From Chloroflexota bacterium (GTDB lineage: Bacteria; Chloroflexota; UBA5177): a stretch of 64,000 nucleotides of DNA. Both the position numbers and the translations under genes were made by a program. The notes under the pieces are model-generated. The model did not search any database. It was given only the letters and a program-made list of their open reading frames with translations, and was not told the origin of the DNA. Numbering within the stretch: the first letter of the stretch is position 1; each line of letters opens with the position of its first letter. The DNA lies in the NCBI GenBank assembly GCA_035295425.1, contig DATGJB010000149.1:8509-72508 (forward strand), given 5' to 3'. Positions 22,491 through 38,060 of the stretch are shown here, piece by piece.

Positions 22491-23243
22491 CTACGCGACG
22501 GCTCTCTGATCGTCCGCGACATCCACGCGAGTCATCGCCAGGTAGGCAACGCAAACGACGATCAAGGCTGTCAGGACCAGCGCGACCTTCGCGTCACCGA
22601 GACCCAGACCTCCAAGGATCGGCTTGCCGAGCCAATCCGCCACCGAGGCGCCCAGCGGGCGCGTCACCACGTAGGCGAACCAGAAGGCGGCAACCTCGTT
22701 CATGCCGAGTCGCCAGTAGCCGATACCCGGCAGCGCGAACAGGATGGCAAAGAGGATGACCGAGGGGAAGTAGCCGAGGCCGAGGCTTGCCGCTGTCAGG
22801 TCACCGGCAGCGGTGCCGAGTGCAAAGGTCGCGATCACCGTCGCCCAGTAGAACAGCTCCCGGCGTCCGGCGTAGATGGTGTGGATGGAAAGCGTTTTCT
22901 CGCTCCAATACCAGACGGCGAAGACAATCGCGAGGCACGTCGCGAAGAACGCCGTCGACACGGCATAGGGGACGCCCAGTACGACATGGGCCACGTCGGC
23001 CGCCATGGTGCCGAAGACGGCGACCATGACCACGGCGAACCAGTAGATCCAGGCCCGATAACGGCGCGCCGCCAGCTGCAAGGCGAGCGCCACCACCAGT
23101 CCAACGCACCCGAACACCACCGCGACGTACTTGTCGATATGGAAGACAAGATAGTCCGACGTCGACTCTCCCATCGCCGTGGACAGGAGTTTGACGATCC
23201 AGAAGTAGACCGTTATCTCGGGGACCTTGAGGATCGCGCGCAT
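22491..23243 (-). CDS. Polytopic membrane protein of unknown function
   Basis: The 250-aa product (MRAILKVPEITVYFWIVKLLSTAMGESTSDYL...) has multiple hydrophobic helices. It resembles the uncharacterised membrane-anchored protein family (COG4705-like) from memory. Confidence 0.65.
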   Translation of the reverse strand: MRAILKVPEITVYFWIVKLLSTAMGESTSDYLVFHIDKYVAVVFGCVGLVVALALQLAARRYRAWIYWFAVVMVAVFGTMAADVAHVVLGVPYAVSTAFFATCLAIVFAVWYWSEKTLSIHTIYAGRRELFYWATVIATFALGTAAGDLTAASLGLGYFPSVILFAILFALPGIGYWRLGMNEVAAFWFAYVVTRPLGASVADWLGKPILGGLGLGDAKVALVLTALIVVCVAYLAMTRVDVADDQRAVA

Positions 23244-23419
23244 GGCACGGCTCGACGGCCTCGTGACTAACCGGCGCGTGTACATCTGCCTACTACGCAC
23301 CGCGGCTTTCCCTGACGCCGGCTACCATCGGATCATGCCTTGCCCACTCACGCAGCACATCTTCATGATAGGTCGGGCGCGCCCCATTCAATAGCGACCG
23401 GCGGGGAGCACGGCCGACC

Positions 23420-25228
23420 TCAACGGAGCACCGGCACACCCCGCTGGTGGGTGCCGGGCGGCGAGAGATCGCGCCGGACCGGCGGGGCCTGAGCGGAGCC
23501 TGGTTTCCGGGCGAGGATACTGTCACGCTCGGCGATCAGGTAGTCGGCGATCCGCGCGGCGTTGGCCTGGATGGTCAAACCGGGATTGGCGGAGCCCTGC
23601 GTCGGGAAGGTGCTGCCGTCGCAGCAGAAGAGATTCGGGATATCGTGGGTACGGCCGAAGCGGTCCACCACCGATTCCCGCGGATCGTCGCCCATGCGTG
23701 CCCCGCCGATGAGATGAGCGTAACGCGGCTCCTGGACTACCTCCTCGGCGCCGGCTGCCCAGAGAATCTCCGCGACCTTTTTCCGGCCAAAGTCGATCAG
23801 CTTGCGGTCGTTCTCCCGCAGGTTGTAGGTGATCTTCGCCACCGGCAGACCGCAGCGATCCTTCACTTCCGCCAGCTCGACCCGGTTGTCGGGCCAGGGG
23901 AGCAGCTCGCCGAGCAGGCCAAGCGCCGCCCAGTGGTTGTAGTCCATCATCACCCGCCGCATGCCCCAGCCCCAGGCGCCTTTGGCAACTATCATCTGCT
24001 TGGCGAAAGCAATGGGCAGCGGGCCCACTGTCTGCACCGCGAAACCGCGGGCGAAGTCCCGTCGCGGGTCGGTCTCATAGAACTCCTCGGTCAGAGCGTG
24101 AGCAGGTGGCGCCTTGTACATCCGCACCAGCTCGGAAAAGCGCCCCAGCACGACGTTCCCTGCCTGCACCATCAGATAGCGGCCGACTGTGCCGCTTGAG
24201 TTCGCCAGCCCGTTCTCGTGCCCGGGGCAGGCGGAGTTGAGGAGGAGGCGAGGCGTCTCGATGGCGTACCCACAGGCCAGCACAACCCTGGCCCGTTGCT
24301 CGCGCGGCTGGAGATCCGGCGCGGCGCCAGCCTGGTCGGCGTGGGCGCCATCGGGGCCCACACAGTCGCCGTGATAGTTCGATCGATCTAGCCGGAAGTA
24401 GGTAACACCAGAGACCAATCCATCCTTTCCCAGGTTGATGCGGCCGACCATGCAGTTGTCGCGGATCTCGGCGCCGTGCCGGACGGCATCCGGAACGTGG
24501 GAAACCAGCGTGCTCTGCTTGGCGCCGACCTTACAGCCCTGAATGCAGAAACCGCGGTAGATACAATGCTGCCGGTCGCCAAAGGCCCCGGAAGCGATGG
24601 CAACCGGACCACCGGCCGAGACGCCAATCCCGAGCGCGGTACAGCCTTTGATCAGGACGTCGCCCACGCCGCCCATCGGGTGGGGCCCGTAAGGATAACC
24701 GTGTGGATCACCCCATGGGTAGTGGGCAGGTCCCGCCACCGGCATCTCTCGCTCCAGCATCTCGTAATACGGCTTCAGGTCCCGGTAGCTGATCGGCCAG
24801 TCGGCTCCGACACCGTCCTCCGAGTAGACGCGGAAGTCGGAGGGGTGGAAGCGCGGCGCAAACGAGGCCCAGTGCACCGAGCCGCCACCTACCCCCCGGC
24901 CGCTATTGTTGGCGCCGAGCGCGATCGGGTTCTCACCCCCGGTGATCCGCAGCTCGGTCCAGTAGAGCCGGTGTGACCCGGCCTCATCGCTCACCCAGTC
25001 ACGCTCGGTGTCCCAGAAGGGACCGGCATCGAAGGCGACCACACTGAAGCCGGCTCGGGCCAGCCGTTGGGCCAGCACACCGCCCGCCGACCCGACGCCC
25101 ACGATGCAGAAGTCCACCTCCTCGTCGTCCCGGTAGCGACGCATGGGATAGTCGATGGTCTGAATCGGCCCAAGCATGTGAGAGCGCGTCGAGGAACCGC
25201 CAAAAGCCCCGAGAAGCGGTGTTCTCAT
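23420..25228 (-). CDS. GMC-family FAD-dependent oxidoreductase (large flavoprotein subunit)
   Basis: A Rossmann motif, DFCIVGVGSAGGVLAQRLARAG, is present, and the C-terminus is GMC-like (HLIGGARMG, FPTQGSANP). The start is uncertain: ATGs lie at 25315, 25228, 25177 and 25144, and none has a clear SD. Confidence 0.85.
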   Translation of the reverse strand: MRTPLLGAFGGSSTRSHMLGPIQTIDYPMRRYRDDEEVDFCIVGVGSAGGVLAQRLARAGFSVVAFDAGPFWDTERDWVSDEAGSHRLYWTELRITGGENPIALGANNSGRGVGGGSVHWASFAPRFHPSDFRVYSEDGVGADWPISYRDLKPYYEMLEREMPVAGPAHYPWGDPHGYPYGPHPMGGVGDVLIKGCTALGIGVSAGGPVAIASGAFGDRQHCIYRGFCIQGCKVGAKQSTLVSHVPDAVRHGAEIRDNCMVGRINLGKDGLVSGVTYFRLDRSNYHGDCVGPDGAHADQAGAAPDLQPREQRARVVLACGYAIETPRLLLNSACPGHENGLANSSGTVGRYLMVQAGNVVLGRFSELVRMYKAPPAHALTEEFYETDPRRDFARGFAVQTVGPLPIAFAKQMIVAKGAWGWGMRRVMMDYNHWAALGLLGELLPWPDNRVELAEVKDRCGLPVAKITYNLRENDRKLIDFGRKKVAEILWAAGAEEVVQEPRYAHLIGGARMGDDPRESVVDRFGRTHDIPNLFCCDGSTFPTQGSANPGLTIQANAARIADYLIAERDSILARKPGSAQAPPVRRDLSPPGTHQRGVPVLR

Positions 25229-25415
25229 GGAACGCGAGCCGTCTGCCGAGTTGGGAAGGTAGCCGGGGACGATCCGCTGCGGCGGGTACCTGGCTGGTGC
25301 CTGGCGTGGAGACATCGTTGGCGGGGGAAGATCGGGCTGAAGCCCTCTGCTACGGGGAGGTGGGCGGGGGCGGGGGCGCGACGTGTAGGGGTGGAGCAGG
25401 GAAAGAGATATCGCG

Positions 25416-26177
25416 TCAATGTGTGCCCTCCTGACCGGCCGGAGCGCGGTGCGGGTGACGGCCACCCAGCGGCTGGTAGCGATCCGAGCGAGACGATGGC
25501 GGGGCTGCCCACTCGTACCGTCGCTCGTTCACCTCCCATGGCTCCGGCTGACCGTTCTCCAGCCGGAAGTAGCCGCGCGGATAGGCCGGCCCTCCGAAAC
25601 CGATCTCATCCCAGGCGTAGGGATGCGCGTAGTAGGCGTCGACCACATCCGACGCCAGGAGGATCCAGAAGCGGTCGGCGGGCATCTGCTTCCAGATCTC
25701 CTCCCCACCACACGGCTCGTCTTCATGGATGGTCCAGAGCACGTCATCCTGCTCTGACGGTCCCAGGTCGACGAACGGCAGGTGGTGCATGGTCCGGGCA
25801 ATCTGGTCGATCGCCTTTAGACCCAGATGGTAGGCATCGCCGTCGGACGGCATGTCGTCGTAGCGGTAGCCGTCGGTGCGTCCGCTGTAGAGACGTTCGT
25901 CGATGACGTTGACGATTGGAATGCGGTGGTCCGGATCGCGGTCGTCCTGGGGGAGGATACGCGCGGCGACGGCGCTGAGGAGCTCAACCTCCTCCGGCTC
26001 GAAGAACCGGATTGGCGGGACCTTGTAGAGACGCGCCTCGATGACCGCCCGAGTCGCCTCATCCCAGAATGCCTGCTGATCCATGGTCGAGAAGCCGGGG
26101 TAGTAGCCGGGCTGGGCGCGCGATGGGATGGTCTGCCCCGTGGCAGGATCGATCGGAAGGTTGGTGGAGTCAGTCAT
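25416..26177 (-). CDS. Gluconate 2-dehydrogenase subunit-3-family protein (small partner of GMC dehydrogenases)
   Basis: The 253-aa product carries FFEPEEVELLSAVAARILPQDD and DAYYAHPYAWDEIGFGGPAYPRGY, typical of this family. No twin-arginine signal is visible. AAGGA SD overlaps the upstream stop. Confidence 0.8.
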   Translation of the reverse strand: MTDSTNLPIDPATGQTIPSRAQPGYYPGFSTMDQQAFWDEATRAVIEARLYKVPPIRFFEPEEVELLSAVAARILPQDDRDPDHRIPIVNVIDERLYSGRTDGYRYDDMPSDGDAYHLGLKAIDQIARTMHHLPFVDLGPSEQDDVLWTIHEDEPCGGEEIWKQMPADRFWILLASDVVDAYYAHPYAWDEIGFGGPAYPRGYFRLENGQPEPWEVNERRYEWAAPPSSRSDRYQPLGGRHPHRAPAGQEGTH

Positions 26178-26187
26178 GGAGCGTCCT

Positions 26188-27180
26188 TCAATCCGCCCTC
26201 CGCAGCAGGCTTGCCAGAGCTCCCATGGCGCCGCTCGCCGCCAGCAGCAGCGGCACGAACAGCGGCGGGCCGTAGAGTGCGTTGTAGAGCGGCAGCTTCC
26301 TTCCCCCTGGTCGCCGCAGCGCTCCCCGCACGTGGTAGAAGAATCCGAGTCCGCCGTCCAGCAGCGCCAGCAGCGAGCTCAGCGGAAGCAGGGTATGGGC
26401 GATCCGCCGGCTCCACAGCGTGCCGGCGCCGGCGATGCACAGCAGCGGCCCGAGCACCACCGGACTCCACTGCTCGACCGGGTAGGTGAAATTGTTCTTG
26501 TAGTGCGAGTAGAGCGCCTCCAGACCACTGAGGAGGGCGGCAAAGCCGGCCGCGACTGCCAGGTTCTTCTGGAACCGTCCCTCCCGGATCCGGTGCTCGA
26601 GTACGATTCCCTCGTGGCCCACGCGCCGGGGACGGAGCCCGGACAGGCCGCCACGTGGCAGGTCCAGCGGCATCCGGGCGGTGGGATCGTCCTCGCGTCG
26701 CAGCAGCGAGGCGATCACGCCGAGGTAGCCGTTCAGCGCCAGGAGAAGCGGGGCGAAGAGCGGCGGTCCCATGATGACGTTCATTACCGGCACCCGCCAT
26801 CCACCCGGCTTGCGCGCGACACCGCGCACGTGGAAGTAGAATCCGAGCACGCCATCCACCAGCAGGAGCAGCGAGGCGACCGGCAGCAGAACGCGCGCCG
26901 CCCACCGGTTCAGGGCCGCCCCCACGCCGGCCACGGCGAGCGCCGCGCTGAGAAAGACCGGCGTGTACATGACCTGCTGGCTGTAGCTGCCCCGGTAGTG
27001 CTCGAGAGTGACCTCGAGTCCCCCCAGCAGGCTGGCGAAGGCGGTGACCAGCGCCAGGCTGCGCTGGAAGCGCCCCTCACGGATATGCTGCTCGACGACG
27101 ATCCCCTCGTGCGTGACCGCGCGCGGTAGCAGACCGCGCAGCGCGGAAGGAATCGGCCGCCGCTCGATGGTGTCGATCAT
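26188..27180 (-). CDS. Uncharacterised integral membrane protein, internal tandem duplication of a 4-TM module
   Basis: The 330-aa product has two halves, aa 17-162 and 182-330, that align along their length (HEGIV.E..IREGRFQ...GLE....HY...LGF..HVRG...PGG...GPPLF.PLLLA...ASLLRR.D). The ATG shares one nt with the upstream stop (TGATG). Confidence 0.75.
   Translation of the reverse strand: MIDTIERRPIPSALRGLLPRAVTHEGIVVEQHIREGRFQRSLALVTAFASLLGGLEVTLEHYRGSYSQQVMYTPVFLSAALAVAGVGAALNRWAARVLLPVASLLLLVDGVLGFYFHVRGVARKPGGWRVPVMNVIMGPPLFAPLLLALNGYLGVIASLLRREDDPTARMPLDLPRGGLSGLRPRRVGHEGIVLEHRIREGRFQKNLAVAAGFAALLSGLEALYSHYKNNFTYPVEQWSPVVLGPLLCIAGAGTLWSRRIAHTLLPLSSLLALLDGGLGFFYHVRGALRRPGGRKLPLYNALYGPPLFVPLLLAASGAMGALASLLRRAD
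26191..27132 (-). repeat. Intragenic tandem duplication (two ~147-aa modules: 26695-27132 and 26191-26637)
   Basis: Found by hand alignment of the two protein halves. The duplication is conserved at protein level, not as a near-identical DNA repeat. Confidence 0.8.
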
Positions 27181-28976
27181 CAGATCAGCTGGTCGATCTT
27201 GTCCCGGAAGGCGGTAAGCGCGATCCGCGCCCCGTCCGGCTGTCCCTTCACCAGCGCCTCGGCGAAGTGTTTGACCTGCTTGGCACTGACCTTTGGCGGC
27301 ATCGGCGGCTCGTTCGGATCGACCACCGCCTCGAGTACCGCCGGTCCGGGCACGGCCAGGAACCGGCGCATGGTCTCCTCGATCTCGTCGGGACGCTCCA
27401 CACAGAAGCCCTCCGCCCCGGCGGCGCGCGCCCAGGCGGCGAAGTCGGCGCTCTGGAGCTCGACGCCGTACTCCGGGTTACCGAGAAAGACGATCTGTTC
27501 CCATTTGATCTGGCCCAGCACGTTGTTCTTGATGATGATGACCTTGATCGGCAGCCGGTACTTCACGGCGGTGAGCACCTCACCCATGAGCATGGTGAAG
27601 CCGCCATCGCCGACGAAAGCGATCACCTGCCGGTCGGGAAAGGCTACCTGCGCGCCAACCGCATAAGGAAGGCCGGGGGCCATCGTCGCCAGATTGCCGG
27701 AGAGGCTGAACTTCTGTCCGCGCTTGAGCCGGAAGTTCCGCCCGATCCAGATGGTGTTGGTCCCGCTGTCGCCGCAGATGATGGCATCAGGCGCCACCAG
27801 CTTTTCCAGGGTGTGGGCGACGACCTCCGGCTTCATCGGCACGTCGGTCCGCGTCCCCTCGGCGTCGAGTTGGGCGTTCCAGGCTTTCATCCCTTCCTGG
27901 GCTTTCTCCAGAAAGGCACGGTCCGCCTTGCGCTGCAGCAGGGGCAGCAGTGCCCGCATGGTCGCTCCCGCGTCGCCGACCAGTCCGACCTCAATGGGGA
28001 AGCGCAGCCCCAGACGTGTCTCGTCGACATCGATCTGCACGCCGCGCGCCTGCGACGGCTTGGGGAGGTAGGCGACGTACGGGAAGGAGGTCCCAACCAT
28101 GAGAACTGTGTCGCACTCCTCCAGCGCCTCCTCGCTCGGCCGGGTCCCGAGCAGACCAATCCCGCCCGTAGTGAACGGGCTGTCGTCGGGCACAACGCCC
28201 TTGCCCAGCAGCGGCTTCACGATCGGGGCGGCCAGTAGATCAGCCGCCTGCTCGAGCTCATCGCCCGCGTCCAGCGCGCCATGACCGGCGACGATCGCTA
28301 CCTTGGTCCCGGCATTGAGAACGTCGGCGGCGGCGCGCAGCAGCTCCGGCGTGGGTATCGGCGCCACCTTTGGCAGCCCATTGCGCGAGCTGTAGAAGCC
28401 GGCCGGAGGCTGGTCGATCTGATTCGGCGTACGCGGCGGGCCGCCCATTGCCTTGTAGAAACCGCTCTTCGCCTCCATCGTCTGGTAGTCGATGGCGAGG
28501 TTGATATGCGCCACCGTGCGCTTCGAAAGCGCGGTGCGGCAGGCGGTGTTCACCAGATTGAACACGTCGCTCGCTCCTTGCACCGCCTGGTTGAACGCCG
28601 CCACATCCTTGTAGAGCGAGAGGAGATCCACCTCCTGCTGGTAGCTGAGACCGAGCAGATCGCTCTCCTGCTGGCCGGTGAGCGCCAGCACCGGCGCGCC
28701 GTCCAGCTTGGCGTCGTACAGCCCGTTCAGGAGATGAATAGCGCCCGGGCCGCTGGTAGCGAGGCAGACCCCGAGCCGTCCGGTGAACTTCGCGTACGAG
28801 CACGCGGCGAAAGCGGCCGCTTCCTCGTGGCGCACCTGGATGAAGCGGACCCGATCCTGGTGGGTTCGCAACGCCTCCATGATGCCGTTGATGCCATCTC
28901 CAGGAATCCCGAAGATGGTGTCCACGCCCCACTCCGCCAGCGTTTCGATGAGTACATCCGATACGGTCTTCGCCAT
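27180..28976 (-). CDS. Thiamine-diphosphate enzyme, pyruvate oxidase / pyruvate dehydrogenase (quinone) PoxB-like
   Basis: The N-terminus is MAKTVSDVLIETLAEWGVDTIFGIPGDGINGIMEAL. The TPP motif GDGGFTMLMGE...IIKNN is present. AAAGGAGA SD lies upstream. Confidence 0.88.
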   Translation of the reverse strand: MAKTVSDVLIETLAEWGVDTIFGIPGDGINGIMEALRTHQDRVRFIQVRHEEAAAFAACSYAKFTGRLGVCLATSGPGAIHLLNGLYDAKLDGAPVLALTGQQESDLLGLSYQQEVDLLSLYKDVAAFNQAVQGASDVFNLVNTACRTALSKRTVAHINLAIDYQTMEAKSGFYKAMGGPPRTPNQIDQPPAGFYSSRNGLPKVAPIPTPELLRAAADVLNAGTKVAIVAGHGALDAGDELEQAADLLAAPIVKPLLGKGVVPDDSPFTTGGIGLLGTRPSEEALEECDTVLMVGTSFPYVAYLPKPSQARGVQIDVDETRLGLRFPIEVGLVGDAGATMRALLPLLQRKADRAFLEKAQEGMKAWNAQLDAEGTRTDVPMKPEVVAHTLEKLVAPDAIICGDSGTNTIWIGRNFRLKRGQKFSLSGNLATMAPGLPYAVGAQVAFPDRQVIAFVGDGGFTMLMGEVLTAVKYRLPIKVIIIKNNVLGQIKWEQIVFLGNPEYGVELQSADFAAWARAAGAEGFCVERPDEIEETMRRFLAVPGPAVLEAVVDPNEPPMPPKVSAKQVKHFAEALVKGQPDGARIALTAFRDKIDQLI

Positions 28977-28993
28977 GTTCGGTCTCCTTTGAT

Positions 28994-30391
28994 TCAGTGA
29001 TGACGGGCGCCGTGCGACGGCGGGACTGTGCGCTGTGGCTCGCCCGGACGACGGCTCTCGCCGGAAACGCCCGGCAGGTCGGCGATCTCTCGTCCGCCCA
29101 CGGCGTCGAGTGCCCAGTCGAGGCCGATCCGGATCCGGTTGGACAGGCGGGGCAGTTTTGACAGGTAGATCGCTCGCCACATGAGCCAGGCAGGCATGCC
29201 CGAGAAGCGCCGGCCGTGAATACTGGCAACCGCGGCCCGCCTGCCGACCATGGCCAGCTCTCCAATCGGGTGGTAGACGAACGGCTGCGGCTGCCTTCCA
29301 TTCAAGGTAGCAACGATGTTGCGTGCCACCTGTTTTCCCTCGCGCGTCGCATTCTGCGCGGTCGGGGCGTAGGTTCCCTTCCCCCGCGGCTCGGGCACCT
29401 CGGCGCAGTCTCCCAGCGCCCACACCCCGGCGTGACCCGGCACCGCGCAGCCGGCATCCACGACGATGGCGTGATGCCGGCCAAGCTTGAAACCGCTCTG
29501 GGCGACAACCGGATTGGGCTGGACGCCTCCCGCCCACACCAGCGTCCGCGCCGCCACACGCATGACCGCCCGCGCGGACGAGTGATCGTCTCCGTGCGCA
29601 GCGTCGCCGCGCTCCAGCTCGACGTTGTCCGGGCCGGCGCTGGCCACGCGGGTACCCAGCATAACCTCAACGCCCCGCCGCTCCAGTTCGCGCTGGGCGT
29701 AGGAGGCAAGCCTCTCGTCGAGCTCCGGCAACAGCCGTGGCCCCGGCTGCACGATGATGGTGCGCACGTCCTCGGCCTGCACCGCGGAGAACTGCGGCCG
29801 GAGACCGCGTACCAGATCATTGAGCGCCGCCATGGTCTCGACACCGGAGAACCCACCACCGCCGACGACGAAGGTGAGGAGCTGTCGGCGCACGGCGGGA
29901 TCGGGCTCCTCGTCGGCACGCTCCAGCAGGGCGATCGCCCGATGACGAATCGCCTCCGCCTCCGTCACCGACTTGATGGTCAGGGCGTTGTCCTGGAGAC
30001 CGGGGATATGGTGGAAGTTCGTGATTGACCCGAGCGCGATCACCAGCTGATCGGCCTGGAGGGTGCGCTCGGCGGGAGGGATGCTCTGCGCGCCGTCGCC
30101 GACCTCGATGCTCACCGACCTGCTGGCGGCGTCGATCCTGGTAATGCGTCCTTGCTCGAAGCGCACGCGTGGCGATAGAGAGCGTATCGCTGCGACGACA
30201 CTCCCTGGATCGACATCGCCACCGACAACCTCGGTCAGCATGGGCGTGAAGAGCGAGAAGTTGTTCCGGTCAACCAGCGTGATATCGCACCGCCGCTCCC
30301 GCGGCAGCAGTCGTATCAACTCCTGCGCGACGCTCATGCCGGCGAAACCGCCGCCGAGAATGAGAATTCGTGGGTATGACGCCGTCGCCAT
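28994..30391 (-). CDS. Type II NADH:quinone oxidoreductase (NDH-2) family flavoprotein
   Basis: Two dinucleotide-binding motifs are present, ILILGGGFAGM and VVGGGGFSGVE. The length of 465 aa is typical. Confidence 0.88.
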   Translation of the reverse strand: MATASYPRILILGGGFAGMSVAQELIRLLPRERRCDITLVDRNNFSLFTPMLTEVVGGDVDPGSVVAAIRSLSPRVRFEQGRITRIDAASRSVSIEVGDGAQSIPPAERTLQADQLVIALGSITNFHHIPGLQDNALTIKSVTEAEAIRHRAIALLERADEEPDPAVRRQLLTFVVGGGGFSGVETMAALNDLVRGLRPQFSAVQAEDVRTIIVQPGPRLLPELDERLASYAQRELERRGVEVMLGTRVASAGPDNVELERGDAAHGDDHSSARAVMRVAARTLVWAGGVQPNPVVAQSGFKLGRHHAIVVDAGCAVPGHAGVWALGDCAEVPEPRGKGTYAPTAQNATREGKQVARNIVATLNGRQPQPFVYHPIGELAMVGRRAAVASIHGRRFSGMPAWLMWRAIYLSKLPRLSNRIRIGLDWALDAVGGREIADLPGVSGESRRPGEPQRTVPPSHGARHH

Positions 30392-30392
30392 G

Positions 30393-32831
30393 CTATGTCA
30401 CCTGCGTGAGCTCGAGGATGCAGAATCCGCGCCGCTCGATGACGACGGGGACGCCGCGATTGAGCTCGGAGCCGGAGAGCGGGGTGTCGCCGTCGATCCA
30501 CTGGCCCAGCAGGCTGTTGTAAATCCGCATCCGATACGATCCCTCGAGGTTGCCCTGGACACGTAGGGACGTGTTGGCCGTGCGCTGCGCGGTGTTCCCG
30601 GCAAATAGCAGCAGATCCGGCCCCTGCCGCAACCCGATCGCGCAGATCGCCTCGCCGGTGACGTGCACCCGGTCGGTGATGTCTTCTTCGTAGGTTGAGG
30701 TCGGGATCGAGTCACGTGGGAAGAAGAAGCTCGTGTAGAGGGCGAGCTCGGGCACCCGTGCCGTCAGCCAGGTCAGGCGACGGCCCCGGTACGGGAGGTT
30801 CTGCACCGCCAGCCATTTCCAGTCGGGAGCCAGACGGGGCGAGAGGGTGAGCGCGTCACCCGAGTGGCTCAGACCGGCCACTCCCTCGATGGCCGCCCAT
30901 AGATAACGGGGCGGAAACCAGGGAGAGAGCATCATCCCCTGGTTGACGAGCGTCTCCCCATTGAGCCACTCCGAGAACTGTCCGGGCACCGTGTTGTTCC
31001 GGCGTGGGTCGGTGGAGTAGTTCCGGAACGACGTACTGAGCGCATGGGCCATGAACTGCTGGTCGTACTTGGCGGCGGCGAACGCGTACCAGAAGGAGAC
31101 CGCGACCCACACACCGCCCAGCAGGCCCCAGCCGCCACTGGGGGTATACATCGGCGAATCGCGGGGAGTGGTGCGGATCCCGCCGGCCGTCCAGAAGTCC
31201 TCCTCGCTGAGCCGGCTGATGATCCTTGCCGCCGTCTGGTCGTCCGCAACTCCGAACATCACTGGAAAGACCAGGTCCGAGGTCACGTCGCTCCGCGGAT
31301 TGCCGTCCAGATCGATGTGGAGGTAGTACAACCCGTTCTCCGGATTCTTCAGATGGGTGTTGATGGCGTCTTTCAGGGCCGCGACCTCGGCCGCGAGCTC
31401 GCGGCTCTCGTCGTGCTTCTCGAGCACGCGCGCCATGTGCGCCACCGTCTGCAGAGCGCCGTAGCATTCCGAGTTCACCTCGGTCGTGGCGCCGGAGAGC
31501 CGGTAGTTCGGGATGACGTTGCGCCAGCCGATGATCCCCCAATCCTGCGTCCCGGTCGCGGTACACCAGACCAGCCCCTGCGCGTTGCGCTGCGACAGGA
31601 TGTAGCGCGCCGCCTTGAGCGCCGCGGGGTAGACCTCGCGCAGGAAGTCGATGTCACCGGTCGCGTTGTAGTGGTGCCAGAGCGCCATGATGATGAGCGG
31701 GGTGTTGTCGTTGATGTTGAGTCCGTAGTCCTCGGTCTTTCCGGTCCGGATGTCGTAGTACTCGACGATCATGCCGCTCTTCTCCTGGAGCCGCACATAA
31801 GCTTTCAACGCTTCGCGGGCAAACTCCGGATTGAGATAGTCCGCGCCGAAGCCGAACCAGGCGGTATCCCGGCCGACGCTGTTGTTGGAACGCGTGGGGT
31901 CGTTCACGAAGCACCACCCGGTGGGCGCCTTCGATTCGACCCGCAGCATGTTGGCCTTGGCCCAGAGGACGCCGCGGTTCACGCTGGTATCCGGCGTGAG
32001 CACGACCGACCGTCCCAGCAGATCGTGGTAATGCGCCTTGGTCCGGCGCAGCGCTTCATCGGCGTCCGGGCAGCCACAGTAATTCCGCACTGCCCCTTTA
32101 CGCCCGTCGCCGAAGCTCAGCAGGTAGGTGAGGCGCGCCCGCTCGCCCGGCGCGATGCGATTCCGGTGCTCCAGGACTCCGAGCGGATCTTCGGGCGCGA
32201 CCGTCCTCCCGGAGAGCGGACCCGGCTGCCGGTCGAGCACTGACTTGCCGTAGTCGAGGGTGGTCTCAAAGGCGCACGGCTTCTCCGAGCACCCGAAGAC
32301 GCGCGCCAGACTGGGCCGTGACCTGTTCCAGGCAATCAGTGCCCCCAGCCGCCGGTCGTAGGCTGCCACCACGTCGTGGTCGGTGAACCCACGGAGCACC
32401 ACATAGGCGTAGGTGATGACCTCTACCGGAGCCTCGCCCTCGTTTCGGAGCTCAAGCACCTGGTAGACGCCGGGCGGATCGACCGAACCGTCCTCGTGGA
32501 CCGGGCCGCTCAGCACAAAGATGTCCTCGTGCACGTCAATGTGGTTGGAGAGCGCGTAGACATGCTCCTGGTGCTCGGGATGGATGATGAATGTACCCGG
32601 ATTCTCCTGCGCCAGGTACATGCCGGTCACCGCGTCATAGTGCCGCAGGATCACCGTCCCGAAGAGCGTCTCGCCGCTATCGATGCTGTAGACCTTCTCG
32701 ATCGCCCCATTGGCCTTGACGATCGCCACGGCTTTCGGGCCGCCCAGCGTGCTCCCCACCGCCAGATCGGTGTCGGCCACCTCATAGATCGCCACCCGGC
32801 CGCTGTGGCCGACGCCCTTGGCAATGTCCAT
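30393..32831 (-). CDS. Six-hairpin glycosidase-like protein (glycogen-debranching / amylo-alpha-1,6-glucosidase-like)
   Basis: The 812-aa product runs from ATG 32831, with GAGG upstream. It has an (alpha/alpha)6-like core (GADYLNPEFAREALKAYVRLQEKSGMIVEYYD, NDNTPLIIMALWHHYNATGD, WGLLGGVWVAVSFWYA). The stop lies 1 nt from the NDH-2 ATG. Confidence 0.75.
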   Translation of the reverse strand: MDIAKGVGHSGRVAIYEVADTDLAVGSTLGGPKAVAIVKANGAIEKVYSIDSGETLFGTVILRHYDAVTGMYLAQENPGTFIIHPEHQEHVYALSNHIDVHEDIFVLSGPVHEDGSVDPPGVYQVLELRNEGEAPVEVITYAYVVLRGFTDHDVVAAYDRRLGALIAWNRSRPSLARVFGCSEKPCAFETTLDYGKSVLDRQPGPLSGRTVAPEDPLGVLEHRNRIAPGERARLTYLLSFGDGRKGAVRNYCGCPDADEALRRTKAHYHDLLGRSVVLTPDTSVNRGVLWAKANMLRVESKAPTGWCFVNDPTRSNNSVGRDTAWFGFGADYLNPEFAREALKAYVRLQEKSGMIVEYYDIRTGKTEDYGLNINDNTPLIIMALWHHYNATGDIDFLREVYPAALKAARYILSQRNAQGLVWCTATGTQDWGIIGWRNVIPNYRLSGATTEVNSECYGALQTVAHMARVLEKHDESRELAAEVAALKDAINTHLKNPENGLYYLHIDLDGNPRSDVTSDLVFPVMFGVADDQTAARIISRLSEEDFWTAGGIRTTPRDSPMYTPSGGWGLLGGVWVAVSFWYAFAAAKYDQQFMAHALSTSFRNYSTDPRRNNTVPGQFSEWLNGETLVNQGMMLSPWFPPRYLWAAIEGVAGLSHSGDALTLSPRLAPDWKWLAVQNLPYRGRRLTWLTARVPELALYTSFFFPRDSIPTSTYEEDITDRVHVTGEAICAIGLRQGPDLLLFAGNTAQRTANTSLRVQGNLEGSYRMRIYNSLLGQWIDGDTPLSGSELNRGVPVVIERRGFCILELTQVT

Positions 32832-33124
32832 ATATTCTTCGCGCCTCGCCTCGTACTGTGAAGAACGCGCCCAGCAGCCGGCTCGAATGGCACGCGAGCC
32901 ATCTCGCTCTCCCAATCCTGCCTCAGCAAGAATAGTGCCAATGCAATGATATCGTGTGGCGATATAATACGCCGAAGAACGGTTCGTCCCGGGACAGGGC
33001 TGCCGCTTCCTGGCTTCGAGGCAAAGCGATGGGGCCAACTCGACAGCAGACGTCGAAGTACCAGCCGCACTCCCGGCGAGGAAGCGAACCCGGCGCGTCC
33101 TCTTCGAGCAGCTACGCTGGCAGT

Positions 33125-33661
33125 GTGAAACGTGTCCTGCTCACCGGGATGTCGGGAACGGGCAAGTCCACGCTGATTCGCGAGCTGACGGTCCGTGGAT
33201 ACAGGGCGATCGATGCCGATTCGGACGAGTGGTCCGAGTGGGTCACCGTCGATAGTGACGCCGATCCGTTCGATCCGATCCCCGGACCGGGCTCCGTATG
33301 GCGGAACCGCGATTGGCTCTGGAGCGAAGACCGCATGCGGCGCCTTCTAGCAATCGACGATATCGACTTACTGTTCGTCGCCGGCACCGCCTCAAACCAA
33401 GGGAAGTTCCACCAACTCTTCGACCACATCGTGTTGCTAACCGCGCCAGCGAGTGTACTCGTCGAACGGCTGGCTACCCGGACCAGCAATTCCTACGGCA
33501 AGCATCCCGAGGAGCTGGCCCGGGTTCTCCAGCACCTGCAGACGGTCGAACCGCTCTTACGGCGAGCCGCGACGCTGGAGATCGATACCACCGCCTCGGT
33601 CGGTGAGACGCTGGAGATGATTCTGAAGGCAGTCGGACCGCAGGAGGGACGGTCCGGCTAA
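33125..33661 (+). CDS. P-loop NTPase / AAA-family kinase-like protein
   Basis: The product starts VKRVLLTGMSGTGKSTLIRELTVRGYRAIDADS (Walker A). GTG 33125 gives a family-typical N-terminus, and ATG 33029 is an alternative start. Confidence 0.7.
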   Translation: MKRVLLTGMSGTGKSTLIRELTVRGYRAIDADSDEWSEWVTVDSDADPFDPIPGPGSVWRNRDWLWSEDRMRRLLAIDDIDLLFVAGTASNQGKFHQLFDHIVLLTAPASVLVERLATRTSNSYGKHPEELARVLQHLQTVEPLLRRAATLEIDTTASVGETLEMILKAVGPQEGRSG

Positions 33662-33671
33662 CGGCACCCGC

Positions 33672-34610
33672 TTATCGTCTCGCCTGCTGCACGCGATCGG
33701 GTGGCAGAACGGCATGAGCTCCAACCGTTCCACCGTTCACCACCTGCGTCACCCGCAGGTCGACCGCAAGGCTGCACAGTGCCATGGCCTCCGCTGACAG
33801 TAGATCGAAGGCCGACCCCACATGTCGGAGCATGGCGCGCAGGGCGATCACCGCGGCATCATCCAGCGACCGGCCGAATCCCAGCGTGACGTAGCCGGCG
33901 GGAGTTACCGCCTCCGGACCGTCGAGAGGAAGCTGCTCGCGCAGGCTGAACCGCAGCTCGACCCGCTCCATGCCGCACTCCAAAGCGGTCTGCCCCACCT
34001 CGCCGTCGCCCTGCGCGGCATGGCCGTCGCCCACCGAGAAGATGGCGCCCTCCACCTCGACCGGCAGCAGCACCGTCGAGCCGGCCACCAGCTCTCGGCA
34101 GTCCATGTTGCCGCCGACGCGGCGGGGCGGCGTCGTCGAATGCCGGCCCGGCTCGGCGGGCGCATTTCCCATCACACCCATGAACGGCCGCAAGGCAAGA
34201 CGCAGGCCGGTATGGCGCTCGGTCGCCCAGCCGTCCGACCCGATGTCCCAACCGAGGCCCGCTTCCTCGGTGAGATCCAGGTTGTAGCGCGGGTTATAGG
34301 GCCGGGGCCCGGCCCAGGTCCATCCCCACCGGGTGGGCCGAAGGTCCACGATCTCGATTGCCAGCGCGTCGCCCGGTCTGGCTCCCCGAACGGCAATGGG
34401 ACCGCTCAACGCATGCCCCTGTTCGTGCTCAGGGTCTGCCTCGATCTCGCGCGGGATCCCACCGAACTTCTCGCCCGGTCCGCCCCAGCCGGCGTCCAGC
34501 GTCCGGTAGACGACCGAGTCGCCGGGATCAATCGTCAGCACCGGCGGAATATCGCGGTCGAAGCAGTCCCGCAGGTTGGGCCGGCTGAGCTCGAGGTGGT
34601 GCGTGACCAT
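33672..34610 (-). CDS. Acetamidase/formamidase-family amidohydrolase
   Basis: The 312-aa product runs from MVTHHLELSRPNL and carries FmdA/AmdA-like segments (TIDPGDSVVYRTLDAGWG, GGNMDCRELVAGSTVLLPV, FSVGDGHAAQGDGEV). Confidence 0.82.
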   Translation of the reverse strand: MVTHHLELSRPNLRDCFDRDIPPVLTIDPGDSVVYRTLDAGWGGPGEKFGGIPREIEADPEHEQGHALSGPIAVRGARPGDALAIEIVDLRPTRWGWTWAGPRPYNPRYNLDLTEEAGLGWDIGSDGWATERHTGLRLALRPFMGVMGNAPAEPGRHSTTPPRRVGGNMDCRELVAGSTVLLPVEVEGAIFSVGDGHAAQGDGEVGQTALECGMERVELRFSLREQLPLDGPEAVTPAGYVTLGFGRSLDDAAVIALRAMLRHVGSAFDLLSAEAMALCSLAVDLRVTQVVNGGTVGAHAVLPPDRVQQARR

Positions 34611-34840
34611 CACTGCGAGCGTACAGGATGCCCGGCCGGGAGCAGGAAGACGGTGGCGCCGGACTTCGCGGCTGGCGGCTGCGAATCGGCGGCGTCCCAA
34701 CCTCCGCTAGCGTGAGTCAGGTGAGGGTGGGGTGAGCACGATGCGCAGCGGGCCGATCCTTCCTTCCGATTTCTCGGCACCGAGGATCGCCAGGTGTGCC
34801 GCGGTGGAGGACCGGAATCGTAAACCGGCTGCGTTAGCTC

Positions 34841-34870
34841 TTGACAACTTCGGTCGCCTCCGTACAGAAT
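34841..34870 (+). promoter_or_regulatory. Candidate sigma70-type promoter of the SARP-family regulator
   Basis: A perfect TTGACA (34841-34846) is followed by an 18-nt spacer and CAGAAT (34865-34870), about 30 nt upstream of ATG 34901. Confidence 0.4.
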
Positions 34871-34900
34871 TGTCACGAGGGAAGTGCGAGGGGAGAGCGC

Positions 34901-37900
34901 ATGCCCAGGCAGCCGGCACCCCATGGAGAAGAAGCTTTCGTCAGCTCAGCGGCCGGACTGACGATCCGGCTCCTCGGGGGCTTCGAGGTTCGCGTGGGGC
35001 AGCAGCTCGTGCCGGAGTCAGCGTGGCGGCTGAACAAAGCACGTAGCCTGCTCAAGCTGCTGGCGCTGGCGCCCGCACACCGGCTGCCTCGCGACAGCGT
35101 CATCGACCAGCTCTGGCCGGATCTGGACCCGGGTCCGGCAAGCAACAATCTGCACCAGACGTTGCATGGCCTGCGCCGTGCCCTGTCCACTCCCGATGGG
35201 TCCCCTCGAGTACGGCTGCAACACGGTATCATCGAGCTCGCTTTGCCTGGGCCGCTGCTGGTCGACGTCGCGGAGTTCGAGGCCGCCGCGGCCCGGGCCC
35301 GACACTCCGACGAGCCTGCCGCGTACCACGCCGCGATCGACCTCTATGCCGGCGATCTGCTGCCCGACGATCTCTACGAAGACTGGGCCGCCGGCCGCCG
35401 CGAGGCGCTGCGCCAGACATACCTGGGGCTGCTGCTCGGCCTGGCGCGTCGCCACGAGGCACGTGGTGAGCTCCGGCAGGCGATGGAGGCACTGCGGCGC
35501 GCGGTGGAATGCGAGCCGTCCCTGGAAGAGGCACACGCCCAGCTCATGCGTCTCTATGCCGCCACCGGTCAGCGGGGACGGGCGCTCCGCCAGTACGAAC
35601 AGCTCCGGGAGGTGCTGACCACCGAGCTGAACGTCGAGCCGGATGACAGTAGCCGGCAGCTGCACGGGCGGATTCTCACCGGCGGCAGTGCGGACCCGCC
35701 GGACCCGGCGGCGCCAGGACGCCATGCACCGATCCACAATCTCCCCATCGCCCTGACGAGCTTCGTGGGGCGAGAGAGCGAGATCGCGCGGGTGGCGGAA
35801 ACCCTGCAGACCGCACGGCTCGTGACGCTGGCCGGCATCGGCGGCGCCGGCAAGACGCGGTTGGCGCTCCGCGCCGGTTGGGACCGCTTGAGTCACTATC
35901 GTGACGGTGTGTGGCGGGTGGGCCTCGCCGCGTTGTCCCGGGGAGAGCTGGTGCCCGAAACCATCCGCACCGCGCTCCAGCTCGCCGAGCAGCCGGGGCG
36001 AAGCTCGCTCGACACGCTACGCGAGCACCTGCGCAGCCGCCACCTCCTGCTCATTCTCGACAACTGCGAGCATCTCACCGCGGCGTGCGCCGAGCTCGCT
36101 ATCTCGCTCCTGCACTCCTGTGCCGAGCTGCAGATCCTGGCCACAAGCCGGGCGCGCCTCGGCGTGCCCGGTGAGGTGACGATCCTCGTCTCGCCGCTCT
36201 CGACACCGCCCGCATCCGAGAAGGTGCTCGACGATCTGGCCCGCTACGAATCGGTCCGGCTCTTCGTCGAGCGGGCTCGTTCCCGGCGGCCGGACTTCGT
36301 GCTGGCGGCAGAGAATGCCGTTCCCGTGGCGCAAATCTGCCGCACGGTGGACGGTATTCCGCTCGCAGTGGAGCTCGCCGCGGCACGAGCGGGCGTGCTG
36401 CCCGTCCACCAGATTGCCGATCGACTGGTCGGTGCAATCGACCTCCTCGTGACGGACGACCGGGTTGAAGCACGCCACCAGACGTTGCGCGCCGCCCTCG
36501 ACTGGAGCTACCAGCTGCTCAATCCTGACGAACGGTGCCTCTTGCGCCACCTCGCCGTTTTCGAGGGTGGCTGGTCGCTCGAGGCCGCCGAGAACGTGTG
36601 TGACGGCGAAAACGACCAGCGAGTCCTCGACCTGCTGAGCGGACTGGTGGACAAGTCGCTGGTGGTTGTCGCGGGGACGGTCGGTGATATCGTGCGCTAC
36701 CGCTTCCTGGAGCCGGTGAGACAGTATGCGGTGCAACGGCTCGCGGCGACCGGCGAGACGGCTCACCTCCAAAGGCGACATGCCGCCTGGTTTGCGACCC
36801 TGACCGAGCAGGCGGCGCCGCACTTGCAGCAGCCGGAGATGCGCGGCTGGCTCGATCGGTTGGAAGCCGACCACGACAACCTGCGAGCCGCCATGCAATG
36901 GTCGCTCACCGAAGCCGAGCCGGGGGTGGGCCTGCGCATAGCCGGCGCCGGCTGGCGGTTCTGGTTCGCCCGCGGCCATCTGACCGAAGTGCGCGCCTAC
37001 CTGGACCGTTGCCTGCACCTGGCCAGAGCAGGACGTGGCGTGGCAGCACCGGTGCTTGCCCTGGCCCGGAACGCCGCCGGAGCCTGCGCCTACTTTCAGA
37101 GCGACCTGGAGGAAGCAACGAAACACTACGAATCGGCGCTGGCGCTCTACCGGGAGCTGAACGATGAAGCGGGGATGGCGCGGGTTCTCTCCAATCTGGG
37201 GCTGATCAGGAAAGACCGCCGCGAGAGCGAACGCGCCACCGAGCTACTGGAGGAAGCGCTGGAGCTGCAAACCCGACACGACAACCGGGCTGGAATGGCA
37301 AGCACCCTGGGAAATCTGGGAATCCTCGCCCAGGAGACCGGCGACTATGAGCGGGCGCGCGCGCTCCACGAGCGCGCCCTGGCGCTCGCCCGCGAGACCG
37401 GATTGCAGCAGGTCGTCCTTACCTCCATCAATAATCTCGGCGCTATCGCCGTGGAACAGGAGCAACTTCCACGGGCGCGAGAGATCCTCCTGGAAGGGCT
37501 CGATCTGGCGGCAACGCTGGGCGTGCAGCGAAGCTGGATGGCGGCGGCCACGAACCTCGCGAACATAGCACGCAAGCAGGGGAACTTCGACGAGGCTCTG
37601 GGTCGCTATCGAAGCAGCCTCAAGGCTGCGCGGAAGTTGGATTCGCAGCTGTCGATCGCCCTCAACCTCGAGGGGATTGCGGCGGCCTTTGCCGCCCGTC
37701 ACCTCCTGCAAGGCGCGGTGTACCTGTTTGCCGCAGCCGACCGGCTGCGGCGTGCTAGCGGCATCCCTCCCATCCCGATCGAGCAGAGCGAATACGATGC
37801 ATTGCTGGGTCTAGCCCACACGCGGCTAGGCGACGAGTTCGTTTCCGCCTGGAACGCCGGCCAGCGGGTGGCGATTGATGAAGTCATCGCGTTCGCTTCG

Positions 37901-37942
37901 GATGAGCCGGCGGCCGGCAGCCTGGCGCCCCGATCGGACTGA
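34901..37942 (+). CDS. SARP/AfsR-type regulator: OmpR-like winged helix + BTAD + NB-ARC (STAND) ATPase + TPR array
   Basis: LTIRLLGGFEVRV...DQLWPDL is the wHTH. The BTAD segment is DLYAGDLLPDDLYEDWA...LMRLYAATGQRGRALRQYEQL. The P-loop is GIGGAGKTRLA, and the Walker B-like motif is LLILDNCEHL. C-terminal TPR-like repeats include SNLGLI, GNLGIL and NNLGAI. GAGGGGAG SD is present. Confidence 0.9.
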   Translation: MPRQPAPHGEEAFVSSAAGLTIRLLGGFEVRVGQQLVPESAWRLNKARSLLKLLALAPAHRLPRDSVIDQLWPDLDPGPASNNLHQTLHGLRRALSTPDGSPRVRLQHGIIELALPGPLLVDVAEFEAAAARARHSDEPAAYHAAIDLYAGDLLPDDLYEDWAAGRREALRQTYLGLLLGLARRHEARGELRQAMEALRRAVECEPSLEEAHAQLMRLYAATGQRGRALRQYEQLREVLTTELNVEPDDSSRQLHGRILTGGSADPPDPAAPGRHAPIHNLPIALTSFVGRESEIARVAETLQTARLVTLAGIGGAGKTRLALRAGWDRLSHYRDGVWRVGLAALSRGELVPETIRTALQLAEQPGRSSLDTLREHLRSRHLLLILDNCEHLTAACAELAISLLHSCAELQILATSRARLGVPGEVTILVSPLSTPPASEKVLDDLARYESVRLFVERARSRRPDFVLAAENAVPVAQICRTVDGIPLAVELAAARAGVLPVHQIADRLVGAIDLLVTDDRVEARHQTLRAALDWSYQLLNPDERCLLRHLAVFEGGWSLEAAENVCDGENDQRVLDLLSGLVDKSLVVVAGTVGDIVRYRFLEPVRQYAVQRLAATGETAHLQRRHAAWFATLTEQAAPHLQQPEMRGWLDRLEADHDNLRAAMQWSLTEAEPGVGLRIAGAGWRFWFARGHLTEVRAYLDRCLHLARAGRGVAAPVLALARNAAGACAYFQSDLEEATKHYESALALYRELNDEAGMARVLSNLGLIRKDRRESERATELLEEALELQTRHDNRAGMASTLGNLGILAQETGDYERARALHERALALARETGLQQVVLTSINNLGAIAVEQEQLPRAREILLEGLDLAATLGVQRSWMAAATNLANIARKQGNFDEALGRYRSSLKAARKLDSQLSIALNLEGIAAAFAARHLLQGAVYLFAAADRLRRASGIPPIPIEQSEYDALLGLAHTRLGDEFVSAWNAGQRVAIDEVIAFASDEPAAGSLAPRSD

Positions 37943-38060
37943 GCGATCTTGCTAAGAATCGGTTAAGTGCGCCCTCGTACGCTGCTGGTGAGCTACCGGC
38001 CATGGAGCCGGAAGCCTGTGCCGGTTCGGCCAGCAGGCCACCACGAACTGCGGAAGGACC

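Follow-up and report, generated by a model that had tools for sequence, protein, structure and literature searches.

The fructose, glucose, sorbitol and gluconate dehydrogenase complexes that carry flavin adenine dinucleotide (FAD) are periplasmic enzymes of Proteobacteria and the workhorses of direct-electron-transfer biosensors. Besides the fructose and glucose enzymes, the sorbitol, gluconate and 2-ketogluconate dehydrogenases are further heterotrimeric flavoprotein-cytochrome c dehydrogenases of these bacteria. In the classical enzymes a 3Fe-4S cluster takes the electrons of the FAD, and the cytochrome c subunit receives them from it at its third haem; the small subunit is a hitch-hiker of the twin-arginine translocation (Tat) system that is exported to the periplasm (PMC9727119). 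A second described system is AceDH (GmcA/GmcB), the acetol dehydrogenase of Methylacidiphilum fumariolicum SolV, in which a [Cu-4Fe-4S] cluster is ligated by C-x2-C-x2-C-x3-C, an Asp and a Met from the small subunit; the small subunit bears a Tat signal, the acceptor is a soluble periplasmic cytochrome and no membrane subunit is described (bioRxiv 10.64898/2026.06.11.731722). Here we analyzed a six-gene operon on the minus strand of a 64-kb stretch of DNA from a Chloroflexota bacterium (contig DATGJB010000149.1, positions 8,509 to 72,508; hereafter the window, whose own positions are used below), which comes from a metagenome contig (ENA ERZ27279680) and has a G+C content of ~67% and its closest relatives in the Chloroflexota. 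The last three genes of the operon encode a protein with eight transmembrane (TM) helices, called TM8 below, a small subunit of the Gluconate_2-dh3 family and a GMC flavoprotein. On balance we favour the view that these three proteins form a three-subunit, cytoplasm-facing, membrane-bound dehydrogenase that reduces menaquinone. The full-text literature that we searched surfaced only the classical enzymes and the AceDH preprint, and no prior description of this architecture. A preprint on clofazimine resistance that names a GMC oxidoreductase together with a MarR gene was set aside, because its genes are unlinked.

The genes of the operon, in the order of transcription, and its two non-coding regions are the following:

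30393-32831, minus strand: gene 1, 812-aa MGH1-like, six-hairpin (alpha/alpha)6 glycosidase-like protein (Pfam, NCBIfam)
28994-30391, minus strand: gene 2, 465-aa NDH-2 (Pyr_redox_2 and NDH2_C)
27180-28976, minus strand: gene 3, 598-aa PoxB-like thiamine pyrophosphate (TPP)/FAD enzyme (TPP_enzyme_N/M/C)
26188-27180, minus strand: gene 4 (TM8), 330-aa membrane protein with no family match
25416-26177, minus strand: gene 5, 253-aa small subunit, Gluconate_2-dh3 (PF13618)
23420-25228, minus strand: gene 6, 602-aa GMC flavoprotein, the catalytic subunit (GMC_oxred_N/C)
25229-25415, minus strand: 187-nt non-coding gap between gene 5 and gene 6
32832-32953: 122-nt divergent intergenic region 5' of gene 1, likely the promoter region of the operon

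The six minus-strand open reading frames (ORFs) and the domains that a preliminary description had assigned to them were recovered in the ORF list and by Pfam and NCBIfam, and reading the sequence confirmed the tight junctions that it had reported. Genes 1 and 2 are separated by a single nucleotide (TAG-c-ATG), and genes 2 and 3 by 17 nt that include the Shine-Dalgarno sequence AGGAGA; the stop codon of gene 3 and the start codon of TM8 share one nucleotide (cTGATG), and the 10 nt between TM8 and gene 5 contain GGACG, again in the position of a Shine-Dalgarno sequence. From this layout we infer that the six genes would be carried on one transcript and co-translated.

The conserved unit is the triad of TM8, the Gluconate_2-dh3 small subunit and the GMC flavoprotein, and not the six-gene stack. 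We surveyed a forward set of 80 loci, with one genome per species in GTDB (Ktedonobacteria, Thermomicrobiales, other Chloroflexota, Acidobacteriaceae and Terriglobia), and took the counts wherever the extent of the contig allowed. The small-subunit gene lies directly after TM8 in 75/76 of these species-representative loci, and the GMC gene follows in all of the 65 TM8 loci that could be scored. A reverse set of 80 metagenome loci, found from the small subunit, gave a similar picture, with TM8 directly upstream of the small subunit in 54/57 (53/57 by script; the locus L104, flagged by the overlap threshold, was added by eye) and the GMC gene downstream of it in 53/54. Well over 100 independent loci share this gene order, which is thus far from chance, and the co-occurrence of the membrane protein with GMC and Gluconate_2-dh3 pairs, which the preliminary description had proposed to survey, holds in the Chloroflexota, Acidobacteriota and Actinomycetota. 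Identity across phyla reaches 55-80% for TM8, 55-75% for the small subunit and 66-90% for the GMC protein. Even a TM8 homolog with 41% identity (L086) occupies the same slot before the small-subunit/GMC pair, as do the homologs in Actinomycetota that have a single repeat of four helices (TM4). The actinobacterial order is TPP enzyme, TM4, small subunit, GMC, in some cases an ASRT gene, and a gene of the MR_MLE (enolase-superfamily) family, with neighbouring genes sharing 1-4 nt; overlaps of stop and start codons run along the whole series from the TPP gene to MR_MLE in L178 and L087. The ASRT-family (PF07100) gene, of 123 aa, lies between GMC and MR_MLE in two actinobacterial loci, where its ends overlap the stop and start codons of its neighbours (L087 10806-11177; L172 10793-11164). 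Cultured strains that have the gene set include Dictyobacter aurantiacus, Ktedonobacter robiniae and Phycicoccus ginsengisoli.

The two genes that open the operon are lineage-specific accessories outside this conserved core. A glycosidase of the gene 1 type occurs near the triad in 2/80 GTDB loci and 8/32 long metagenome loci, and an ortholog with 70% identity stands directly upstream of TM8 in L002/L005; a close NDH-2 is found beside the triad in one other locus (L058), with the same order of NDH-2, TPP enzyme and TM8. The module proposed in the preliminary description, the six-gene stack, therefore stands in its triad core and not in its glycosidase and NDH-2, which rarely adjoin the triad elsewhere.

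TM8 belongs to no described family. It consists of two homologous four-helix repeats (residues ~20-165 and ~185-330) whose sequences are 53% identical (E 2e-42), an internal duplication. The AlphaFold2 model (predicted local distance difference test score, pLDDT, 72; predicted template modelling score, pTM, 0.70) has eight long helices; each repeat is preceded by a short beta-hairpin, and the loop that leads to its last helix contains a short helix. Both repeats carry the motif E-x4-H-x-R/K-G/N at the end of helix 1 and H-x-R-G...PGG...N...GPP around helix 3, and distant members also keep E-x4-H-x-R/K-G and H-x-R-G...PGG...N..GPP..AP. Three histidines (H117, H226 and H283) are invariant and a fourth (H61) is nearly so, at 90% or more; the invariant polar or charged residues in or beside the helices are E56, E60, H61, D109, H117, E221, H226 and H283. 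No Pfam or NCBIfam family matched TM8, and with 21 members searched at an E threshold of 10 only scattered noise matches appeared. A profile search of the PDB returned nothing significant (E above 1), and Foldseek searches of the PDB gave a best E of 0.07 with a TM-score of ~0.2 for the 8-TM model and, for the 4-TM model, a best E of 0.63 to a generic four-helix membrane bundle. Neither the sequence profile nor the fold matched cytochrome b, NrfD, SdhC/D, DoxX or transporter families significantly.

This family is large. More than 3457 of the scored candidates are TM8 homologs, which form 677 clusters at 50% identity, and wherever a source supplies a name it is "hypothetical protein", except for one "small basic protein". 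The Actinomycetota contribute more than 3000 members of the single-repeat form TM4, a protein of ~160 aa with four helices, whose homology to the duplicated form is clear (hhalign probability 100%, E 1e-40). Some apparent features of the family were dropped on inspection. A 533-aa protein of the representative library (P0126) that looked like a natural fusion of TM8 and the small subunit turned out to be a frameshifted read-through with the last TM8 helix out of frame, a caution for automated surveys of domain architecture in this family; the long Arg-rich N-terminal extensions of some homologs look like over-extended ORF calls; and a likeness of the numbering of the TM8 histidines to that of haem A synthase CtaA found no support.

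The catalytic pair resembles the flavoprotein and small subunit of known dehydrogenases. The GMC protein scores 54.8 bits with GMC_oxred_N and 81.9 bits with GMC_oxred_C, and carries an N-terminal FAD motif, DFCIVGVGSAGG. Its best solved relatives (E ~1e-49) are the large subunit of fructose dehydrogenase (7w2j/8k6k) and the alpha subunit of the FAD-dependent glucose dehydrogenase of B. cepacia (6a2u/8hdd). The cysteine motif HCIYRGFCIQGC (C-x5-C-x3-C) aligns with CCGNNNCMPIC of these relatives at identical spacing and is invariant in 73 orthologs, and we take it as the putative site of a 3Fe-4S cluster. The N-terminus MRTPLLGAF...HMLGPIQ is kept from residue 1 (138 orthologs), which is why we place the GMC start at 25228 and the length of the preceding gap at 187 nt; the public gene call (start 25177, 585 aa) is probably wrong, and the real protein would have 602 aa.

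The small subunit matches PF13618 with 85.7 bits (E 4.7e-24; cut-off 23.4 bits) and has a conserved hydrophilic N-terminal motif, LP(V/I)D..TGQP..PRAQPGYYPGFST; by sequence it found no solved structure of a classical catalytic complex. Neither this protein nor any of ~80 orthologs combines a twin arginine with a hydrophobic stretch, and their N-termini are hydrophilic, so the lack of a visible Tat signal noted in the preliminary description is a trait of the family. In the GMC protein, Ile occupies the position of alpha-Cys213, which forms the disulfide between alpha and gamma in the periplasmic enzyme of B. cepacia. Both features, the missing Tat signal and the Ile at the disulfide position, fit a cytoplasmic location. 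No ORF of at least 80 aa in the 64-kb window contains CxxCH, and the window thus has no gene for a c-type cytochrome; none appeared among the gene calls of related loci either. The earlier observation that a polytopic protein without a family takes the slot of the missing cytochrome c gene was therefore upheld.

In the mechanism that we infer, from complex formation and orientation to quinone reduction, substrate and pathway, the FAD of the GMC protein would oxidise a hydroxyl group of a sugar, a sugar acid or a small hydroxy-ketone, and the electrons would pass from the FAD to the protein's own 3Fe-4S cluster. The Tat-less small subunit would be a structural partner that stays in the cytoplasm. 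The membrane protein, with eight helices here and four in the Actinomycetota, where it is presumably a dimer, would replace the triheme cytochrome c: it would tether the complex to the inner side of the membrane and provide, or help to form, the site of menaquinone reduction, and its four conserved histidines could be ligands of haem b or part of a quinone or proton site. In favour of the membrane protein as a true subunit are its fixed slot before the small-subunit gene, its translational coupling with that gene, a conservation across phyla on a par with that of the other two proteins and the invariant polar residues of its helices, and also that a 3Fe-4S dehydrogenase needs an acceptor and no other conserved candidate is nearby. 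The triad would work within a conserved catabolic set in which the PoxB-like TPP/FAD enzyme and an enolase-superfamily dehydratase are often joined by a GH15 or MGH1-like glycosidase and by short-chain dehydrogenases/reductases (SDRs); in the lineage of the window the NDH-2 and the six-hairpin glycosidase would have joined the same operon. Since the neighbours are a glycosidase or GH15 protein, an SDR, MR_MLE, the PoxB-like enzyme and, in Actinomycetota, an ASRT-family protein, the route may run from glucoside to sugar, sugar acid and 2-keto acid, with two steps feeding the quinone pool directly, in a manner that would resemble a non-phosphorylative Entner-Doudoroff scheme with quinone-linked steps. 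We also make a broader proposal, with slightly more doubt than belief: that the 4-/8-TM protein represents a membrane subunit of a new class, reactive with quinone and perhaps binding haem b, which joins the Tat-less small subunit and the 3Fe-4S GMC flavoprotein in a cytoplasm-facing respiratory dehydrogenase of complex II logic that is widespread in Chloroflexota, Acidobacteriota and Actinomycetota, and that forms, with the PoxB-like enzyme and the enolase-superfamily dehydratase, the core of an undescribed quinone-linked pathway for sugars or sugar acids.

Several observations weigh against the three-subunit dehydrogenase. All four conserved histidines of TM8 lie on one membrane face, together with most of the conserved motifs, and lysine and arginine number 24 on the opposite face vs 11 on the histidine face; since this bias and the long charged N-terminal tail put the opposite face in the cytoplasm, the histidine face is predicted to lie outside the cell, away from the cytoplasmic 3Fe-4S cluster. 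It may therefore be that the electrons bypass the histidines, or else that the topology was called wrongly. At the level of loci, no TM gene precedes the small-subunit and GMC genes of L145 and L160, all that L108 retains of TM8 is a C-terminal relic (…PPIFTPLLFAATSFL), and L059 has TM8 with neither a small-subunit nor a GMC gene after it. AceDH, a related enzyme that uses a separately encoded soluble cytochrome as acceptor, shows that enzymes of this class can do without a membrane subunit of their own. In Phycicoccus ginsengisoli a gene for a 571-aa QcrB-like cytochrome b (L171 12800-14515) overlaps the GMC stop codon, which could mean that the TM protein alone is perhaps not the quinone-reactive part. 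Finally, the NCBIfam matches of the GMC, TPP and MR_MLE proteins all fall below the equivalog cut-offs and give no substrate. As for the cytochrome b gene, we dropped it as a general partner, for a QcrB-like gene adjoins the triad in no other of 179 loci; the link that it may provide to the quinone/cytochrome chain in Phycicoccus would be specific to that lineage.

The position of the histidines can be read in two ways. The site formed by the histidines and H-x-R-G may lie at the outer side of the membrane and take no direct part in the electron path; E. coli complex II, which can do without its haem in catalysis, offers a comparison. Alternatively, the topology call may be wrong, and the TM8 histidines may be haem b ligands that face the 3Fe-4S cluster. 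The second possibility leads to an explanation that we consider unlikely, although it survives best among the alternatives: the TM protein would be a b-type cytochrome with one haem per repeat, held between the histidines of helix 1 and helix 3, with the Arg of H-x-R-G holding the propionates. The alpha-gamma pair would then dock on the histidine face and the electrons would run from FAD through the 3Fe-4S cluster and haem b to menaquinone, which amounts to the favoured complex with the opposite topology. The four histidines stand at equivalent positions in the two repeats and are kept in distant and single-repeat relatives; helices 1 and 3 could face each other across the four-helix bundle, although the secondary-structure output gives only the order of the helices; and the histidine face holds the largest invariant block (EH.RGSY, MY.P, H.RG..RKPGGWR, N..MGPP.FAP), as would suit a docking surface. 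The same charge counts and N-terminal tail that place this face outside speak against a b-type cytochrome, as do the absence of likeness to known haem-binding membrane families in Pfam, PDB sequence and Foldseek searches and the placement of both haems at the same depth, which has no obvious purpose.

The loci that lack a TM gene bear on a somewhat less probable explanation, in which the TM protein does no more than anchor the complex passively, act as its scaffold or assist its assembly, and the electrons of the 3Fe-4S cluster go directly to menaquinone at the surface of the membrane or to a carrier encoded elsewhere. That a few alpha-gamma pairs do without the TM gene is consistent with it, and so are the function of AceDH with a separately encoded soluble cytochrome, the ability of PoxB and NDH-2 to reduce quinone as peripheral proteins with no integral subunit, and the cytochrome b gene that one actinobacterial locus adds. 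Against it, the cross-phylum identity of 55-80% and the invariant Glu, Asp, His, Arg and Asn residues exceed what an anchor needs, the duplication retained the same polar residues in both halves, and the single-repeat and duplicated forms share their motifs over a large evolutionary distance.

The position of the TPP gene suggests a further arrangement, improbable in our judgement, in which the TM protein is a quinone-side dock common to the PoxB-like enzyme and the GMC/small-subunit pair, within a unit of four proteins. The TPP stop codon overlaps the TM start codon here and in Acidimicrobiales (L178), and in Acidobacteriota, Thermomicrobiales and Actinomycetota the TPP gene is the one immediately upstream of the TM gene; a TPP homolog is found near the triad in 37/44 loci with at least 7 kb of upstream sequence. 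In most Ktedonobacteria, however, one or two genes separate TPP and TM, some loci have no TPP gene nearby, and E. coli PoxB reaches ubiquinone without a protein partner. Least probable by far is that the TM protein is a small SMR/DMT-like transporter, dimerised in its 4-TM form or duplicated, for a substrate or product of the pathway and merely co-transcribed: the 4-TM and fused 8-TM forms recall the evolution of small transporters, transporter genes are common inside catabolic operons and the top Foldseek matches of the 8-TM model are transporters (TM-scores of only ~0.2), but there is no match to a transporter family, all Foldseek matches are insignificant, the TM gene is fixed before the small-subunit gene, often with overlapping codons, whatever else the locus contains, and a transporter would leave the 3Fe-4S dehydrogenase with no conserved electron acceptor.

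Returning to the three-subunit dehydrogenase, the genes that surround the triad are what would give it a metabolic context. The product of gene 3 has E. coli PoxB (3ey9) as its best solved relative, at full length (E 8e-100), and in the set of structures it scores 338 bits with PoxB and 293 bits with POX vs at most 211 bits with acetolactate synthases. In NCBIfam it reaches 636 bits with PRK08273 (cut-off 724) and 577 bits with pyruvate oxidase, and its 451 bits with the equivalog for ubiquinone-dependent pyruvate dehydrogenase (NF006591) fall short of the cut-off of 792. By these scores, which do not fix the 2-keto-acid substrate, gene 3 belongs to the pyruvate oxidase/PoxB group. Two further genes that recur with the triad lie ~4 kb downstream of the operon in the window:

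17479-18579, plus strand: MR_MLE, sugar-acid-dehydratase-like (Pfam, public gene calls)
18576-19790, plus strand: M24, creatinase/prolidase-like (Pfam, public gene calls)

A homolog of this MR_MLE gene is found near the triad in 55/82 loci (median identity 74%), and in Actinomycetota the gene belongs to the triad's own operon. The MR_MLE protein of the window scores 187 bits with L-talarate/galactarate dehydratase and 127 bits with arabinonate dehydratase in NCBIfam, both below cut-off, and the M24 protein is PepQ-like (138 bits, NCBIfam). Other recurrent partners are the M24 gene, SDRs and a GH15 trehalase-like gene; by NCBIfam, neighbours at other loci include a GH15 protein that resembles the trehalase TreH and an SDR that resembles glucose-1-dehydrogenase, and the triad loci of Ktedonobacteria also have a YdiJ-like FAD/CCG fusion. 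Hence, in the list of partners given by the preliminary description the PoxB-like enzyme recurs, and the MR_MLE, M24, SDR and GH15 partners had been missed.

The accessory enzymes were assigned as follows. Gene 1 has an MGH1-like glycoside hydrolase domain at residues 330-604 (PF22422, 78.8 bits, cut-off 27; PF17389, 41 bits), an N-terminal domain of no known family and a weak C-terminal match to GH65; its PDB matches are weak (7vma, 1.5e-6, and 1v7v) and all NCBIfam equivalogs score far below cut-off. Gene 2 matches Pyr_redox_2 (PF07992) with 159 bits and NDH2_C (PF22366) with 36.2 bits (cut-off 27.7), and its best solved relative is the NDH-2 of Caldalkalibacillus thermarum (4nwz, E 1.5e-47).

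The operon promoter likely lies within the 122-nt divergent region (32832-32953). The only sigma-70-like match between 22300 and 33700 is at 32862-32834 on the minus strand, which is weak evidence, as ~0.9 matches are expected by chance. The gap between the small-subunit and GMC genes is unusually long for the family: the distance from the stop codon of gene 5 to the FAD motif of GMC is 301 nt, with a median of 145 nt and a 5-95% range of 107-308 nt in 151 loci. The preliminary description had singled out this gap as a place where the GMC gene might have a promoter and terminator of its own; its 187 nt contain neither a promoter-like nor a terminator-like site and match no Rfam family, and on these grounds we dropped the idea of a regulatory element there.

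Other genes of the window were also recorded. Next to the plus-strand MR_MLE and M24 genes lies a minus-strand AP_endonuc_2 gene, a sugar epimerase/isomerase-like TIM barrel (the three genes span 16445-19790); this family is an occasional neighbour of the triad (4/32 long metagenome loci), and the MR_MLE and M24 pair recurs in other phyla. A four-repeat DUF347 membrane protein (22491-23300, minus strand) is encoded 119 nt downstream of GMC and beside the triad in no other locus, and is probably outside the dehydrogenase system. A GDE_C six-hairpin glycosidase-like gene of the amylo-alpha-1,6-glucosidase type (819-aa ORF, 6242-8701, plus strand), ~15 kb downstream of the GMC end, hints at glycogen or alpha-glucan metabolism in the region. 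On the other side, ~2 kb upstream of the operon, is an AfsR/SARP-like regulator with BTAD, NB-ARC (STAND) and TPR domains (34841-37942, plus strand), and between the two stand a formamidase-like gene (33672-34700) and an AAA_18 kinase-like gene (32954-33661) that runs opposite to the operon. The segment from 38001 to 40000 combines a strong AT skew (0.27) with a G+C of 0.63, the lowest in the window, and coincides with a 576-aa ORF without a Pfam match (38431-40161); a second such ORF is at 51187-53031. A type IIG/IIS-like restriction-modification ORF (N6_Mtase, Eco57I and TaqI_C) lies at 12438-14357 on the minus strand.

Our results point to a large, cytoplasm-facing sister group of the periplasmic FAD dehydrogenase complexes, in which an unannotated membrane family, whose thousands of members come from three phyla that rank among the most abundant in soil, would stand in place of the cytochrome c subunit. 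If the proposal is true, it would define a new kind of route by which electrons enter the respiratory quinone pool and assign a function to a large family of hypothetical proteins. It would also bring into view a conserved and unstudied catabolic module, composed of the PoxB-like enzyme, the dehydrogenase, an enolase-superfamily dehydratase and a trehalase-like glycosidase, which may matter for soil bacteria that burn storage or environmental sugars.

With regard to known systems, E. coli PoxB and NDH-2 are peripheral flavoenzymes that reduce membrane quinone; gene 3 is similar to PoxB over its full length, but scores below every NCBIfam equivalog cut-off. Complex II has a cytoplasm-facing flavoprotein, a terminal 3Fe-4S cluster and a quinone site at a small helical anchor with or without a bis-His haem b. 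Its likeness to the proposed dehydrogenase is a functional analogy only, as we found no relation in sequence or fold; unlike complex II, the system described here would have one Fe-S cluster inside the flavoprotein and no separate subunit with three clusters, and its anchor is built from four-helix repeats. The NrfD/PsrC anchors have about eight helices arranged as two four-helix bundles, are free of haem, pass electrons from Fe-S clusters to menaquinone and face periplasmic Fe-S subunits. They, too, are functional analogues of TM8 only, for neither the Pfam family NrfD nor a PsrC-type structure was recovered, and membership is unsupported.

AceDH is similar to the pair described here in having a GMC protein with a small partner (GmcB in AceDH) and no dedicated cytochrome c, and in its cysteine motif (GFCFQGC in AceDH vs GFCIQGC here). 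When the motifs are aligned by hand, only Cys187, Cys193 and Cys197 have cysteine counterparts here, whereas the equivalent of the Cu-bridging Cys190 is Arg and that of Asp188 is Ile; because these Cu-ligating residues are absent, a 3Fe-4S cluster is a better assignment here than [Cu-4Fe-4S]. The closest comparison is with the Gluconobacter japonicus fructose dehydrogenase (FDH; 7w2j) and the FAD-dependent glucose dehydrogenase (FAD-GDH) of B. cepacia (6a2u, 8hdd), even though the identity of the GMC protein to their solved catalytic subunits is low. Like these enzymes, the system of the window has a GMC-FAD subunit with C-x5-C-x3-C, a Gluconate_2-dh3 subunit encoded alongside it and the gene for a third, membrane-associated subunit in the same operon. 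Unlike the classical complexes, which are periplasmic, its small subunit has no Tat signal, and an 8-TM protein appears instead of the triheme cytochrome c, with the cysteine of the alpha-gamma disulfide absent. Sharing three of the defining features of the FDH/FAD-GDH type and departing from it in two, the enzyme of the window is a variant architecture of that type and not a strict member.

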